From assembly GCA_011523285.1 (NCBI GenBank), contig WTHC01000025.1, positions 11,848 through 75,847 of the forward strand: a stretch of 64,000 nt of DNA, read 5' to 3'. Position numbers and translations under genes: made by a program. Below are positions 3,999-9,708 of the stretch, piece after piece (the stretch's first letter is position 1; each line of letters begins with the position of its first letter). The notes beneath the pieces are model-generated. The model did no database searches. It saw only the letters and a list, made by a program, of their open reading frames with translations, and was not told the DNA's origin. This stretch comes from Nitrosopumilaceae archaeon. GTDB taxonomy: Archaea; Thermoproteota; Nitrososphaeria; Nitrososphaerales; Nitrosopumilaceae.

Positions 3999-4847
3999 AT
4001 GACGGTTTTACGTAGTTTACTTTTTGTCCCTGGAAATAACAGTCGGTTTATTGGTAAAGCCAAATCACTGAAGTCAGATATACTCTGTTTCGATCTAGAA
4101 GACTCTGTGCCTCAAAACCAAAAACAAACAGCGAGAGAATTTATACATAATGAGCTACAGGAAACTAGCAAATATCAACAACAAATATACGTCAGAATAA
4201 ATTCTCCCAAATCTGATTACCTGAATGACGATCTGTTAGTAATAACTAAATGTAAAATAAATGGTATTGTCATACCTAAAGTAAGTACTGTTGAAGAATT
4301 AAAAATGATCGAAAACAAATTATCTAATTTGGAAATTCGAAATAAATTTAATCATATTAAAATTATCCCTTCCATAGAATCCGCACAAGGTGTTATAAAT
4401 TCATATGATATAGCATCATGTTCAAATCATGTATACGCATTAATATTTGGAATATTTGATTTACTCCATGATTTAGGAATTAGATATAATAAAACATTGG
4501 CTGCTACAAACTTTGCACGTGCTAAGATACCAATAGACGCCAAAGCTGCAGGTATATTTGCAATAGATTCTATATGGCAAAATCTTAAAGATACAAATGG
4601 TTTATTCAATGATTGTGTTGTTGGTAGAGATCTTGGTTATTCTGGAAAAAGTATAATTCATCCTGATCAACTAAAAATAACTCATGATGTATTCAAACCT
4701 AATGATGATGAAATCGAATGGGCACATATGGTATGTAATACATATTCTAAAGCAATCAAACATGGTATTGGTTCTACCAAATTAAAAGATAACATGATTG
4801 ATGAAGTCCATTATAAAATGGCTAAATCTCTATTAGAAAATAAGTAA
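3999..4847 (+). CDS. CitE/HpcH-family acyl-CoA lyase (citryl-/malyl-/citramalyl-CoA lyase beta-subunit like)
   Basis: LRSLLFVPGNNSRFIGKAKSLKSDILCFDLEDSV...KQTARE, IESAQGV and FGIFDLLHDLG match the CitE-like motif series. It starts 10 nt after the preceding reductase gene. Confidence 0.75.
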   Translation: MTVLRSLLFVPGNNSRFIGKAKSLKSDILCFDLEDSVPQNQKQTAREFIHNELQETSKYQQQIYVRINSPKSDYLNDDLLVITKCKINGIVIPKVSTVEELKMIENKLSNLEIRNKFNHIKIIPSIESAQGVINSYDIASCSNHVYALIFGIFDLLHDLGIRYNKTLAATNFARAKIPIDAKAAGIFAIDSIWQNLKDTNGLFNDCVVGRDLGYSGKSIIHPDQLKITHDVFKPNDDEIEWAHMVCNTYSKAIKHGIGSTKLKDNMIDEVHYKMAKSLLENK

Positions 4848-4882
4848 ATTATAAATACATTTTATAATTGAAATAGAATAAA

Positions 4883-5491
4883 TTGTTTACTGGTATAATT
4901 GAAGGTACTGCTACTGTATCATCAATACAACAATATGATTCTAATGCAACAAAATTAAAAATGGATATGATAAATTACTCATCGAATATGAATATCGGTC
5001 AAAGTGTTTCACTCAATGGCGCTTGTTTATCGATCACAAATATTATTAAAAATAGATATCATGAATTCGAATTAACCAAAGAAACAATTTCTAGAACCAC
5101 ATTTGCAAATATCAAAACTGGTGATAAAATAAATGTTGAACGTAGTCTTAAAATTGGTGATAGATTAGATGGTCATTTTGTATTGGGACATGTAGACTGC
5201 GTTTCAAAAGTATTAAAACTACAAAAAATGCAATCTGAAACCAAAATTTGGTTTGATATCCCGCAACAACTTCGTAAATATATAGTTAGTAAAGGTTCTA
5301 TAGCGATAGATGGAGTTAGTTTAACTATTGTAGATGATCTTGTAAATGAGTTTAGTGTTTGTATAATACCACAAACATTACTCAATACAAATTTTAATAC
5401 CAAAACCATAGGTGATGAAGTTAATGTAGAGATCGATATACTTGCAAAACATATTCATAAAAATAATAACTTGTTTACTGGTAATTACTAA
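4883..5491 (+). CDS. ribE: Riboflavin synthase alpha chain, bacterial/eukaryotic two-barrel type
   Basis: Starts (TTG) MFTGIIEGTATV. The second half repeats the barrel motif (GHFVLGHVD...GSIAIDGVSLTIV). About 200 aa. Confidence 0.85.
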   Translation: MFTGIIEGTATVSSIQQYDSNATKLKMDMINYSSNMNIGQSVSLNGACLSITNIIKNRYHEFELTKETISRTTFANIKTGDKINVERSLKIGDRLDGHFVLGHVDCVSKVLKLQKMQSETKIWFDIPQQLRKYIVSKGSIAIDGVSLTIVDDLVNEFSVCIIPQTLLNTNFNTKTIGDEVNVEIDILAKHIHKNNNLFTGNY

Positions 5492-5534
5492 TTTTCTTGT
5501 AAGGTTAATATTGCGTTGTTGTTAAACAAATATT

Positions 5535-6203
5535 GTGACTTTAAATAATACAATAGAGCATTTCCAACGCGGAGAATTTGTTTTAATACATGATGATAAT
5601 GATAGAGAAAATGAAATCGACATGGTGACTGCAGCAGAATTCATTACACCTGAACATATTGTGAGATTACGACAACATGCTGGAGGTTTAATATGTCTTG
5701 CAATAGATTATGCTTTTAGTAAAAAACTAGGAATAGATTACATGCATAATATACTCAATGATTGTCATAATCTTAACATCAAAAAAATGATTTCTGGACT
5801 TGAACCGTATGGTGACAAATCTTCATTCTCTATTTCAATTAATCATAGACAAACATATACTGGAGTAACAGATGTTGATAGAGCTACTACAATCAAAGAA
5901 ATGTCTAATCTATACAAATCAGATTATCCAAAGAAAAATTTTATAAATTCATTTAAGACGCCTGGACATATACCTCTATTACTGGCTTCTGAAGGCCTAC
6001 TTGAAAATAGAAAAGGTCATACCGAGATGTCCATTCTGCTAGCTAAATTGGCTAATGTAGTACCAATTACTGTTATTTGTGAGATGTTGGATTCTAAAAC
6101 ATATTCAGCTTTGTCTACAGCTAATGCAGAAAAATATTCAAAACAAAATTCAATACCATTAATTCATAGCAATGAATTATTGGAATATTCTAACGTGTAT
6201 TGA
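5535..6203 (+). CDS. ribB: 3,4-dihydroxy-2-butanone 4-phosphate synthase
   Basis: FQRGEFVLIHDDNDRENEIDMVTAAEFITPEHIVRLRQHAGGLICLAI and GHTEMS motifs. Confidence 0.9.
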   Translation: MTLNNTIEHFQRGEFVLIHDDNDRENEIDMVTAAEFITPEHIVRLRQHAGGLICLAIDYAFSKKLGIDYMHNILNDCHNLNIKKMISGLEPYGDKSSFSISINHRQTYTGVTDVDRATTIKEMSNLYKSDYPKKNFINSFKTPGHIPLLLASEGLLENRKGHTEMSILLAKLANVVPITVICEMLDSKTYSALSTANAEKYSKQNSIPLIHSNELLEYSNVY

Positions 6204-6206
6204 ATA

Positions 6207-6620
6207 ATGAACATCGCAATAGTGGTATCTGATTTTAATTATAACATAACTTCTAAAATGCTTCAAATCGCATTAGAAAAAACTAAACGGATGAAAATTA
6301 CGGTAACACATACTTGTAAAGTACATGGTGTATTTGATATGCCGATCATAGTAGAAGCATTATTAAATAAAAATGATGTTGACGCTGTAGTAACTTTAGG
6401 AGCAATCATAAAAGGCCAAACAAAACACGATGAAGTTATAGCTTATACTGTATTACATTCACTGTCTCAATTATCACTAAAATATAAAAAACCAGTGTCT
6501 CTTGGTATCAGCGGACCAGGTATGCATGAAAGAATAGCTTATTCTAGAATACGCAGAATGCCTGAAAATGCTATCGATGCAGCTTCTAAATCATTACTTG
6601 AATTAGCAAAATTAAAATAA
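6207..6620 (+). CDS. ribH: 6,7-dimethyl-8-ribityllumazine synthase
   Basis: 137 aa with IAIVVSDFNYNIT...VHGVFDMP...VVTLGAIIKGQTKHDEVI, the lumazine synthase pattern, in a rib operon context. Confidence 0.85.
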   Translation: MNIAIVVSDFNYNITSKMLQIALEKTKRMKITVTHTCKVHGVFDMPIIVEALLNKNDVDAVVTLGAIIKGQTKHDEVIAYTVLHSLSQLSLKYKKPVSLGISGPGMHERIAYSRIRRMPENAIDAASKSLLELAKLK

Positions 6621-7370
6621 TTGATTCAAATCACAGTTATAAAATTATCAGATTATGGGAAATGGACATTGACATTAGGTCAAGATAGAGAACATGAATT
6701 ACAAATGTTTCAAGCTTCTTTATATAAAGAAACACAAAAACTGTTTTCTGAAAGAAATTCACTTGTTTTTTCAAACAGATTTGATGAATTATTCGCAGTA
6801 ACAAACAAATTAAATTTGAATGAACATCTGTACATACAAAAAAAATTGAGAACTATATTTAATAACCCACTGTCAATGTTCATAGGTTATGGTGAAACTC
6901 CATTTGATGCAAATGCACATGCGTTTGAAGGAGAGAAATCACGCACAATACTGAATCAGGACTACATGATATATGGATTCATAAATGATACTAATAATAA
7001 TGATAATGTTGTTATTATTCATTTTGATGTTGAAGACTTTACTTCGTTAAAAAAGAAACAGACCCCATACGAAACGTCATCAATAATATTTGATTTATAT
7101 CATACTATGTCGAGATTTTTTCTGCAACAAAAATCATTATCATTTTTTCTTGGAGGAGATAATTTTATGGTATTATCACATAATAATTATAAAAAACAAA
7201 CATCTGAATTTATAAATATTATACATAAAAAATATGGGTTGATTTTAAATTGTGGCGTTGGTAAAGGATCCACAGCTCGAGAAGCGGCTAAATACGCAAC
7301 AAAATCATTAGATACAATTCGTGCCATTAGAAATTCTGGCGAAAAAAAACCATCAATTTATGAGCTTTGA
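6621..7370 (+). CDS. arfA: GTP cyclohydrolase III (archaeal, FAPy-forming)
   Basis: N-terminus MIQITVIKLSDYGKWTLTLGQDREHELQMFQASLY closely resembles the MJ0145-type GCH III N-terminus (MIQITV..Y.PWT....RE..LQ..Q..LY). Also GGDNFMV. It lies in the rib operon. Confidence 0.85.
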   Translation: MIQITVIKLSDYGKWTLTLGQDREHELQMFQASLYKETQKLFSERNSLVFSNRFDELFAVTNKLNLNEHLYIQKKLRTIFNNPLSMFIGYGETPFDANAHAFEGEKSRTILNQDYMIYGFINDTNNNDNVVIIHFDVEDFTSLKKKQTPYETSSIIFDLYHTMSRFFLQQKSLSFFLGGDNFMVLSHNNYKKQTSEFINIIHKKYGLILNCGVGKGSTAREAAKYATKSLDTIRAIRNSGEKKPSIYEL

Positions 7371-8557
7371 TTCTTAAAAATATTGGAATATTTCACGGTA
7401 ATGATTTAGACTACATCAATTCTACTAATTTAAAAATTTCAGGTCAACATTTTGATGAAATAAATAATAATGACATATTATCAAATAATAATGAATCTAC
7501 TATTGATTGTGAAGGGCTAGTACTGGTACCAGGATTTATTAATGCTCATACTCATATTGGTGATTCTATAGCTAAAGACATAAATCTATCTTTGACTGTC
7601 AATGAAAAAGTCAATCCGATTTATGGAATGAAAAAATATATCTTGAATAACTCATCGCCATCACATTTAGCAAGTTATATGCGTAGCTCATGTAACTCAA
7701 TGCTTAAAAAAGGTATAACCACATTTGTAGATTTTAGAGAAGGTGGCATAGATGGAATAATTTTACTAAACAAAGTATTAAAATCTGTACCAATCAATTG
7801 TATTGTTCTTGGCCGTATAGAATATTATCAAACTGGTGCACAAATTAAAAACAACGAATTTCTTTCTCATGAACAAAATCATGATTTATCTATAATCTCT
7901 AAACATGCTGACGGTTTAGGCATAAGTGGAGCAAATGAATATAGCGATTCTATTCTTCATTGCTTTTCTCAAATACCTAAAATTAGAGCTATACACTCTG
8001 CAGAAACTATGGCTAGTGTAGAAAAATCTAAACAAGTTACGAATAAATCCGAAATAGAACGTGCTTTGCAATTAAAACCACATTTCATCATACATATGAC
8101 TTATGCATCTGAACATGATTTACTTGTAACACGTAAATATGTAGATACAATAGTTATATGTCCTCGTTCCAACGCTACTATGGCAGAAAAAATTCCGAAT
8201 GTATATCAGATGATGAAATTGAGATATAATATTGCAATTGGCACTGATAATGTTATGCTAAATACACCAGACATGTTTAGGGAAATGGATTATCTATGGA
8301 AATCTACCATGGCTATAAACAGAACCAAAATATCTCCCAAACATATTTTAAAAATGGCTACTGTAAACCCTGGAAAAATACTACATAATAAAGGTACAAT
8401 AAAGACTGGGGCAATTGCTGACTGTATATTTATTAAAAAACATGACATAGATTTAGATCCTATTCATGACCCTCACGCTGCAATGGTCCATAGAGCATCA
8501 GAATCTTCTATTCAAGCTGTTATGATAGATGGTAAAATAGTACATGGTAAAATCTAA
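7367..8557 (+). CDS. Amidohydrolase-superfamily deaminase-like protein (COG0402/SsnA/TRZ-ATZ type)
   Basis: PGFINAHTHIGDS (HxH, H61/H63), IHSAET (H210..E213, the deaminase HxxE signature), IIHMT (H243) and IGTDN (D294). It overlaps arfA by 4 nt and the downstream reductase by 14 nt. Confidence 0.7.
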   Translation: MILKNIGIFHGNDLDYINSTNLKISGQHFDEINNNDILSNNNESTIDCEGLVLVPGFINAHTHIGDSIAKDINLSLTVNEKVNPIYGMKKYILNNSSPSHLASYMRSSCNSMLKKGITTFVDFREGGIDGIILLNKVLKSVPINCIVLGRIEYYQTGAQIKNNEFLSHEQNHDLSIISKHADGLGISGANEYSDSILHCFSQIPKIRAIHSAETMASVEKSKQVTNKSEIERALQLKPHFIIHMTYASEHDLLVTRKYVDTIVICPRSNATMAEKIPNVYQMMKLRYNIAIGTDNVMLNTPDMFREMDYLWKSTMAINRTKISPKHILKMATVNPGKILHNKGTIKTGAIADCIFIKKHDIDLDPIHDPHAAMVHRASESSIQAVMIDGKIVHGKI

Positions 8558-9221
8558 ACCGTATATTATTTTAAGTGCTGCAATTACACTTGATGGTAAA
8601 ATAGCTACCAAATGCGGAGACGCCAAAATTTCTAGCCATAAAGATAAAATCCGTCTTCATAACCTTAGGACAACCGTTGATGGAATATTAATTGGCATTA
8701 ATACTGTAAAACAAGATGATCCTCTTCTAACTATAAGATATGCAAAATGTGGTCATAAACATCCTGTTCGTATAATACTAGATTCAAATGGTATTATAGA
8801 TCATAATACCAAAATATTAAAAACATCTACAAAATTTAAAACGATAATCGTCGTATCTGAGAAAATACCGCAACGAAATCTTAACAGATTAAAAAATTAT
8901 TTAAATGTGGATATAATAATGTCTGGGAAAAAAACTGTTGATATAAAACAATTATTACGACATTTATTAACAAAATATTCGATGCAAAGAATACTTGTTG
9001 AAGGTGGAAGTAAAGTTAATTGGAGTTTTATTAATCAAAACCTTTTTGATGAATTAATAATAACCGTATCCCCATACCTGGTAGGCGGAACAAGATCTAT
9101 ACCATTTTTATCAGGAACTGGCTTTCCTAATATTGCAGATTCTCCCACATTGAAATTGAAATCTATAACACGTTTAGAAGATGAAGTTGTTCTTAATTAT
9201 GTTCGTCCATGTCATTTTTAA
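8544..9221 (+). CDS. arfC: 2,5-diamino-6-ribosylamino-4(3H)-pyrimidinone 5'-phosphate reductase (RibD C-terminal domain type)
   Basis: KPYIILSAAITLDGKIAT...ISSHKDKIRLHNLRTTVDGILIGINTVKQDDPLLT...RILVEGGSKVNWSF is the DHFR-like RibD_C pattern. Confidence 0.85.
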   Translation: MVKSKPYIILSAAITLDGKIATKCGDAKISSHKDKIRLHNLRTTVDGILIGINTVKQDDPLLTIRYAKCGHKHPVRIILDSNGIIDHNTKILKTSTKFKTIIVVSEKIPQRNLNRLKNYLNVDIIMSGKKTVDIKQLLRHLLTKYSMQRILVEGGSKVNWSFINQNLFDELIITVSPYLVGGTRSIPFLSGTGFPNIADSPTLKLKSITRLEDEVVLNYVRPCHF

Positions 9222-9708
9222 TTTGTTCTATTTTTTGATTCAGTGCATTTTTGATTTTATCATTTCGTTTTAAATTCAAGACATTACTACATGTAGCACA
9301 TTTAAAGAAACATTCTAAAGCTTCATCAAATGTGATCCTTCTACAATCTTCATTTCCACAATGATAGAATTCATATTTATTTTCATATTCTAATCTTTGT
9401 TCTAACCTTTTGAATATCTTTTTTTTCTGACTTAAAATAAAATGTTCAACTTCTTCTGCGCGTGTACGCCATCTATAAACAAACCAGCCTTTTCTTTCAT
9501 CTTTTATTCTAGTTCCTGTGATTAAAGCCTTTCCAAACAGATCATATAATACACGTCTCACCATATTTATTCTTAATCCAGTTGAACTAGCAATTTCTTC
9601 GTCTGTAGCATCTTCAGATCGTAGAAGAGATCTAGCAACTTTTAGATATTCATCGCCACCTATCATTGATGCAATTCTTATAAATGGATCTTCTCGTTTT
9701 TCTACCAT
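9193..9708 (-). CDS. tfe: Transcription factor E (TFE alpha)
   Basis: Winged helix (DEEIASSTGLRINMVRRVLYDLFGKALI...DERKGWFVYRWR) followed by a CGNEDC...CATC zinc ribbon. Confidence 0.85.
   Translation of the reverse strand: MVEKREDPFIRIASMIGGDEYLKVARSLLRSEDATDEEIASSTGLRINMVRRVLYDLFGKALITGTRIKDERKGWFVYRWRTRAEEVEHFILSQKKKIFKRLEQRLEYENKYEFYHCGNEDCRRITFDEALECFFKCATCSNVLNLKRNDKIKNALNQKIEQIKNDMDEHN

Follow-up and report, generated by a model that had tools for sequence, protein, structure and literature searches.

Which enzyme deaminates the pyrimidine intermediate on the way to riboflavin and F420 in archaea? Deamination is the last step of this pyrimidine branch that has a published candidate but no demonstrated enzyme, a gap that has stood since at least 2002, and Archaea apparently lack any orthologue of the deaminase domain of RibD (Rodionova et al. 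2017). The question is raised again by a stretch of 64,000 nucleotides (hereafter the window) from a Nitrosopumilaceae archaeon (GenBank assembly GCA_011523285.1, contig WTHC01000025.1, positions 11,848 to 75,847 of the forward strand), in which a gene for a COG0402-type amidohydrolase, here called X, lies between arfA and arfC in a compact flavin operon of the plus strand (ribE, then ribB-ribH-arfA-X-arfC). In our view X is probably the enzyme that deaminates the pyrimidine intermediate on the archaeal route to riboflavin and the F420 precursor. The original prediction for this locus, made from its letters only, had held that X probably performs the deamination, and it is well supported by the fold and residues of X, by the operon, by gene clustering and by co-occurrence. 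It is a re-discovery of a prediction published in 2010 and repeated in 2017 and 2021, not a new idea.

Family, fold and catalytic residues of X

The X gene has a TTG start and encodes a protein of 396 amino acids (aa), which matches Pfam family PF01979 (Amidohydro_1) with an E-value of 3.6e-34. The sole NCBIfam model that it passes is NF005552/PRK07213, named 'chlorohydrolase' (307.1 bits, cut-off 294), the next best family reaching 111 bits. On the models for 5'-deoxyadenosine (DadD), 5'-methylthioadenosine/S-adenosylhomocysteine (MTA/SAH), guanine and 8-oxoguanine deaminases, X reached 30-110 bits where the cut-offs are 350-780. Among 1.84 billion representatives searched exhaustively there were 3445 homologue clusters at E <= 0.001, only 153 of which were at E <= 1e-30, indicating that the X family is a compact subfamily within COG0402. 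X matched neither PF00383, which has the cytidine-deaminase (CDA) fold, nor PF02633 (creatininase); its own fold is a triosephosphate isomerase (TIM) barrel.

The residue set of deaminase-type amidohydrolases is complete in X (H61, H63, H210, E213, H243 and D294), and all six positions are invariant in 18 divergent orthologues. Across 61 family representatives, H61, H63, D66, H210, H243, D294, N295 and R376 were invariant, while E213, whose motif H210-S-A-E213 aligns with HLHET of structure 3lnp, was at least 90% conserved, and it was invariant in two further alignments. From these comparisons a family signature was defined in this analysis rather than taken from the literature: N-A-H-x-H-x-x-D66, D-F-R-E125-G-G, H-x-x-E, [CN]-P-R267-x-N269, G-T-D294-N295 and R376. 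The residues D66, E125, R267, N269, N295 and R376 are all present in X and vary little or not at all among rib-linked orthologues; the one COG0402 paralogue inspected, a 427-aa protein of a sampled genome, lacks D66, R267, N295 and R376.

An AlphaFold2 model of X had a predicted local distance difference test score (pLDDT) of 96.5 and a predicted template-modelling score (pTM) of 0.94, and in this model H61/H63, H210, H243 and D294 sit at the C-terminal ends of the barrel strands, in keeping with the superfamily pattern of HxH after strand 1, His after strands 5 and 6 and Asp after strand 8. The best Foldseek matches of the model were all COG0402 deaminases or dechlorinases (template-modelling score, TM-score, 0.8-0.86; identity 14-20%; E 1e-25 to 1e-18). 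They include the MTA/adenosine deaminases 4gbd, 4dyk and 3lnp, TM0936, the isocytosine deaminase Vcz (8is4), guanine deaminase (2i9u, 2uz9) and AtzA/TrzN. The family score, the conserved residues, the predicted fold and these neighbours together bear out the COG0402-type metallo-deaminase assignment of the original prediction, and its reading-frame coordinates, its overlaps of 4 and 14 nucleotides (nt) with the flanking genes and its residue numbers were all confirmed on the sequence. A complex prediction for X with ArfC, run without controls, gave a score of 0.00, which speaks neither for nor against binding.

A Marine Group I homologue, 59% identical to X, carries the name 'pyrimidine deaminase archaeal predicted', which is the SEED role name; together with the NF005552 score, this indicates that X belongs to a family already proposed. 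According to Rodionova et al. 2017, the candidate 'PyrD' was put forward by Osterman, Overbeek and Rodionov in 2010 from chromosomal clustering and co-occurrence, as a prediction to be tested, and HVO_2483 and MJ0699 are listed as predicted pyrimidine deaminase by Pfeiffer and Dyall-Smith (2021). The link of X to MJ0699 and HVO_2483 was made through these papers and through the family model, which has matches in the control genomes of M. jannaschii and H. volcanii. We found no experimental work or enzyme assay on MJ0699, HVO_2483 or the 'PyrD' family in the searchable literature, and in the passages searched of a 2026 review no enzyme is named for the archaeal deamination. The view that the deaminase step had no assigned archaeal gene is therefore correct as far as experiments go, but this very family had been proposed for it in 2010 and again in 2017 and 2021.

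Distribution and gene neighbourhoods of the family

The original prediction had called for a co-occurrence check of the X family with arfA/arfC, which was run on 121 Thermoproteota genomes, 47 of them ArfC-positive and 74 ArfC-negative, using an X profile built from 18 divergent orthologues that were partly drawn from the same genomes. The profile scores were bimodal, with 45 genomes at 314 bits or more and the rest at 165 bits or less. Of the 47 ArfC-positive genomes 44 had a high-scoring X, against one of the 74 ArfC-negative ones, and clustering with the pathway genes extends across archaeal lineages. The lone exception on the negative side (G007), a genome of 76% completeness, carries ribH and a RibBA fusion. 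In family f3, X and ArfC occur together in one genome and are both lacking in the other. The ordinary COG0402 paralogues of the sampled genomes are proteins of 410-520 aa that score at most 165 bits on the X profile.

An enzyme of the CDA fold would be an alternative bearer of the step, and the original prediction had stated that the operon holds no such RibD/Rib2 domain, as we also find. The only PF00383 gene of the source genome encodes a ComEB/deoxycytidine monophosphate (dCMP)-deaminase-like protein of 173 aa, overlaps a gene for a family-B DNA polymerase and has no RibD match. PF00383 occurs in 42 of the 47 ArfC-positive and 22 of the 74 ArfC-negative genomes; searches for it found nothing in the controls, M. 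jannaschii and S. acidocaldarius, or in five ArfC-positive genomes of 99-100% completeness. Compared with X, PF00383 is a far poorer fit to the riboflavin pattern.

Gene neighbourhoods tell a similar story. Among the ten sampled families that have both X and ArfC, seven place X within about 3 kb of rib genes. X adjoins arfC in all 16 genomes of f1 and both genomes of f27, and it adjoins arfA in all five genomes of f19 and also in f31. Within Nitrosopumilaceae, arfC starts about 11-14 nt inside the end of X in 79 of 80 loci, indicating that the X-arfC coupling is conserved. Other arrangements are arfC-arfA-ribB-(ribC-like)-ribH-X with a convergent creatininase gene (G022), and X divergent from ribB-ribH-arfA (G046). 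A 33% identical relative (L098) lies in the order ribB-ribH-arfA-X-arfC-creatininase with ribE divergent, and two relatives at 32-35% identity (L103 and L130) lie in the order ribB-ribH-X-ribE on Thermoplasmatota-type contigs, one of them having cluster members from Thermoplasmatota. Among proteins longer than 693 aa no X fusion was found, which is a weak negative.

Several observations weigh against assigning X to this pathway. X is distant from rib genes in the 10 genomes of f11 and in G115, and it lies 8-10 kb from arfC in two genomes of f13. Relatives at 29-37% identity occur in contexts without rib genes, for example with a Bmp/ATP-binding cassette (ABC) system, and on bacterial-looking contigs some adjoin a creatininase gene and ABC permease genes. 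One of the latter relatives even so exceeds the NF005552 cut-off, so that the family model is no proof of a riboflavin role for every member. Three complete ArfC-positive genomes have no clear X orthologue: G054 has no match, G059 has only a paralogue-like gene of 428 aa, and the copy in G094 is divergent, reading SPASN and GGDN, with other residues in place of the arginine of PRxN and the threonine of GTDN. These three may hold another deaminase. Kinship among the genomes makes the co-occurrence counts overstate the support; given this kinship and a profile partly drawn from the sample, we read the counts as a pattern and not as a test. Finally, the substrate and activity of X are inferred, as for the whole family, and the same holds for the metal, for which of reduction and deamination comes first, and for what the signature residues do.

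On two bacterial-looking contigs (L131:2265-4266 and L100:4219-7221), X-family genes that are 29-33% identical to X and keep the signature follow two ABC permease genes, and on L131 an overlapping creatininase gene also precedes the X-family gene. This arrangement may reflect the same two-enzyme chemistry on an imported substrate. In a quick tree of 78 sequences, whose base is poorly resolved and whose outgroup sits on a long branch, the two members from ABC/creatininase contexts clustered together and rib-linked members fell on both sides of the midpoint split.

Deamination weighed against other activities

The position of X directly after arfA, to which it is translationally coupled, could also be read as that of a formamide hydrolase which deformylates the ArfA product (2-amino-5-formylamino-6-ribosylamino-4(3H)-pyrimidinone 5'-phosphate) in place of ArfB. 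The arfA-X pair is kept in Sulfolobales-like genomes, amide hydrolysis is within reach of amidohydrolases, and the one creatininase-family gene of the source genome, located on another contig (C51, L002:765-1496), reaches only 33 bits on the ArfB (MJ0116-type) model NF033501 with its cut-off of 180. The rib-operon creatininases of L098 and G022 also fail this model, and the source-genome protein is 28% identical to that of L098. To regard the source-genome gene as ArfB is reasonable but unproven. The original prediction was right that the operon has no ArfB-like gene, a domain scan of the window proteins having found neither a CDA-fold nor a creatininase-fold gene inside it; yet the genome search that it proposed turned up this creatininase-family candidate elsewhere.

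Evidence from other genomes bears on the deformylase question directly. X and a creatininase-family gene share an operon in L098 and G022, and the two domains are fused in P0224, a metagenomic protein of about 580 aa (L016:7860-9629, also L017), indicating that both activities are needed together. The called start of P0224 is truncated; its open frame runs upstream and restores the creatininase metal-binding N-terminus, and the fusion is present on three contigs. All ArfA-positive genomes in the sample also carry a creatininase-family gene, which in f11 adjoins arfA-arfC. With a candidate ArfB in the source genome, of a family that is co-operonic with X in other archaea, the deformylase step appears to be covered. 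Conversely, three f2 genomes that are 97-100% complete (G002, G029 and G117) keep X and arfC although no ArfA/GTP cyclohydrolase III, RibA/GTP cyclohydrolase II or RibB was found in them, and no creatininase-family gene was found in two of them either. X therefore goes with the reductase and not with ArfA. X is also present in the RibBA genome, and the GTP cyclohydrolase II route needs no deformylase. The HxxE/H/D arrangement, which the original prediction had already taken to favour a deaminase, and the nearest structures, all of them ring deaminases, point the same way, and a deformylase would leave the deaminase step unfilled. On the strength of the shared operons, the P0224 fusion, the ArfA-less f2 genomes, the catalytic set and the structural neighbours, a deaminase is favoured over a deformylase, and we regard the latter as very improbable.

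Some further observations concern the creatininase-family genes themselves. The genes next to P0224 have no Pfam matches. In G099, from a family in which the creatininase gene otherwise adjoins arfA-arfC, one open frame of 438 aa (contig C2:5400-6665, minus strand) matches both creatininase and GTP cyclohydrolase III, and looks like an ArfB-ArfA fusion. The source-genome creatininase gene overlaps by 28 nt the end of a gene for a PurU-like formyltetrahydrofolate deformylase with an ACT domain (L002:765-2314); the two enzymes would both release formate. No X-like gene was found in the neighbourhood of BrbF in S. meliloti, where the neighbours are MarR and CobW.

It is improbable, in our estimate, that X is a nucleobase or nucleoside deaminase, acting on 5'-deoxyadenosine/MTA/SAH or on guanine, which has no flavin role and stands in the operon by chance. 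In favour of this reading, X is the only COG0402-type protein found in this small genome; one homologue bears the source name '5'-deoxyadenosine deaminase', and some relatives occur away from rib genes, one beside a Bmp-family ABC system. Chance placement is hard to reconcile with linkage to arfA/arfC/ribB/ribH in most sampled Thermoproteota families with both genes and on Thermoplasmatota-type contigs, or with the way X tracks ArfC, while the ordinary COG0402 paralogues differ from X in length, profile score and, in the one inspected, signature residues, and the DadD, MTA/SAH and guanine deaminase scores of X are far below the cut-offs. Scarcely credible is the proposal that X is the missing phosphatase for 5-amino-6-ribitylamino-uracil 5'-phosphate. 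Pfeiffer and Dyall-Smith (2021) name the phosphatase step among the pathway gaps of haloarchaea, and the conserved basic residues K89, R267 and R376 could bind phosphate. The active site of X is nevertheless of the mononuclear deaminase type with HxxE, and its structural neighbours are all deaminases or dechlorinases. The known phosphatases for this step belong to the haloacid dehalogenase (HAD) family, and phosphoesterases of the amidohydrolase superfamily have a binuclear centre, both of which speak against X; a phosphatase, too, would leave the deaminase step unfilled.

If X is the pyrimidine deaminase, the pathway would run as follows. ArfA would open GTP to the formylamino-pyrimidine nucleotide, a creatininase-family (ArfB-type) enzyme encoded elsewhere in the genome would remove the formyl group, and ArfC would reduce the ribosyl side chain. 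X would then hydrolyse the 2-amino group of 2,5-diamino-6-ribitylamino-4(3H)-pyrimidinone 5'-phosphate, giving 5-amino-6-ribitylamino-2,4(1H,3H)-pyrimidinedione 5'-phosphate and ammonia. By analogy with related deaminases, one divalent metal held by H61, H63, H210 and D294 at the C-terminal face of the barrel may activate a water molecule, and E213 and H243 may shuttle protons to the ring nitrogen and the leaving ammonia. The family-specific invariant residues D66, K89, E125, R267, N269 and N295, with the nearly invariant R376, would bind the substrate at its 5-amino group, ribityl chain and phosphate.

The f2 genomes also connect X with F420. In them X is followed by arfC, directly or after one gene, and then by two radical S-adenosylmethionine (SAM) genes, one with a CofH C-terminal domain, which look like the FO synthase pair CofG/CofH. 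The substrate of FO synthase is the deaminated, reduced pyrimidine (Rodionova et al. 2017; the 2026 review), and X and ArfC as makers of the FO synthase precursor fit this requirement. In G029 a deoxycytidine triphosphate (dCTP)-deaminase-like gene (PF22769) lies directly upstream of X. A more far-reaching version of the deaminase assignment, which we hold to be rather unlikely, is that X is a dedicated pyrimidine-nucleotide deaminase with its own pocket (D66, K89, E125, R267, N269, N295 and R376) for a ribityl-phosphate substrate, that the X-ArfC module can be uncoupled from riboflavin synthesis and in some archaea works with cofG-cofH only, and that in the source symbiont X might also cover nucleoside deamination. 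If X-ArfC did serve cofG-cofH only, in genomes where neither RibB nor GTP cyclohydrolase II or III was found, the pyrimidine branch would have to be entered by a route not yet recognised.

Operon layout, regulation and closest known systems

The features of the locus are collected in Table 1. The TTG of X (7367-7369) lies on the TGA stop of arfA (7368-7370), and the ATG of arfC at 8544 precedes the TAA stop of X (8555-8557), giving the two overlaps mentioned above. On the reductase model TIGR01508 the arfC product scored 184.9 bits, slightly under the cut-off of 186.45. The riboflavin synthase is of the bacterial two-domain type (PF00677) and not the archaeal pentameric RibC, so that the operon is a mix of bacterial-type and archaeal-type enzymes.

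Table 1. Features of the flavin locus (positions in the window) and of the f2 loci with cofG-cofH (positions in the loci named)
Feature	Coordinates	Strand	Evidence or remark
ribE, bacterial-type riboflavin synthase, two lumazine-binding domains	4883-5491	+	PF00677 E 2.9e-42; NF006767 216.8 bits, cut-off 155
TTAC-N10-GTAA palindrome, putative RbkR operator	5485-5502		overlaps ribE stop, 33 nt upstream of ribB start
ribB	5535-6203	+	PF00926 E 2.8e-54; TIGR00506 213 bits
ribH, 6,7-dimethyl-8-ribityllumazine synthase	6207-6620	+	PF00885 E 2.3e-31; TIGR00114 117.6 bits
arfA, GTP cyclohydrolase III	6621-7370	+	PF05165 E 9.8e-50, 170 bits
X, candidate 2,5-diamino-6-ribitylamino-4(3H)-pyrimidinone 5'-phosphate deaminase	7367-8557	+	PF01979, NF005552; 'PyrD' (MJ0699) family
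arfC, archaeal-type pyrimidine nucleotide reductase, RibD_C domain only	8544-9221	+	PF01872 E 3.7e-47, 161 bits
X-arfC-cofG-cofH locus, G002	L104:8463-13706		radical-SAM pair looks like CofG/CofH
X-arfC-cofG-cofH locus, G029	L105:7180-12028		radical-SAM pair looks like CofG/CofH
X-arfC-cofG-cofH locus, G117	L106:8053-13305		radical-SAM pair looks like CofG/CofH

The palindrome upstream of ribB matches the RbkR operator consensus for Thaumarchaeota (Rodionova et al. 2017), and 61 of 69 Nitrosopumilaceae loci carry this motif 1.87-1.91 kb upstream of X, often in two tandem copies 18 nt apart. This putative operator suggests that ribB-ribH-arfA-X-arfC forms one unit under the riboflavin kinase/regulator RbkR, outside which ribE would fall. 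Contigs from three metatranscriptome libraries of two studies contained parts of X at 95-100% identity, one run spanning both gene junctions. One run leaves about 7518-7870 uncovered and the others 7065-7517, gaps that are no evidence either way; such contigs cannot prove transcription and give it weak support. The source assembly is 0.83 Mb in size with an estimated completeness of 93.7%, and the DNA of the operon region (window 4800-9300) occurs almost only in sponge and coral metagenomes. This small assembly and near-exclusive occurrence suggest a reduced, host-associated (sponge-associated) Nitrosopumilaceae archaeon as the source organism.

The locus contributes one more orthologue and further comparative evidence for the 2010 prediction. 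If that prediction is true, the amidohydrolase fold in archaea and the cytidine-deaminase fold in bacteria, plants and fungi would represent a clean non-orthologous displacement, hundreds of annotations as 'chlorohydrolase' or 'amidohydrolase family protein' could be corrected, and metabolic models of archaea, the ammonia oxidisers among them, could be given a complete flavin/F420 pathway.

Compared with known systems, X stands closest to SEED 'PyrD'/PRK07213, which is the same family, likewise clustered and co-occurring with riboflavin genes and likewise having a putative RbkR operator; nothing essential differs. The creatininase-fold formamide hydrolases ArfB (MJ0116) and BrbF share pathway and neighbourhood with X but differ in fold and reaction. 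With the bacterial and plant RibD-N and the fungal Rib2 deaminases X would share the reaction (EC 3.5.4.26 type), the ribityl form of the substrate being that of fungal Rib2, and like the RibD deaminase it is associated with a RibD_C-type reductase, although as an adjoining separate gene and not as a fusion; the proteins are non-homologous, X being a metallo-amidohydrolase TIM barrel and RibD-N/Rib2 having the zinc CDA fold (PF00383). The solved COG0402 deaminases share with X the (beta/alpha)8 barrel with a beta-sandwich, the HxH/H/D metal ligands and the HxxE/H pair, and among them guanine and isocytosine deaminases carry out the very chemistry proposed for X, the hydrolytic deamination of a 2-amino-4-oxo-pyrimidine ring. 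X differs from these enzymes in being shorter (about 350-420 aa in the family, against 430-480 aa), in its low identity to them (14-20%) and in its own signature, and whereas they use a base or a nucleoside, its proposed substrate is a phosphorylated ribitylamino-pyrimidine.

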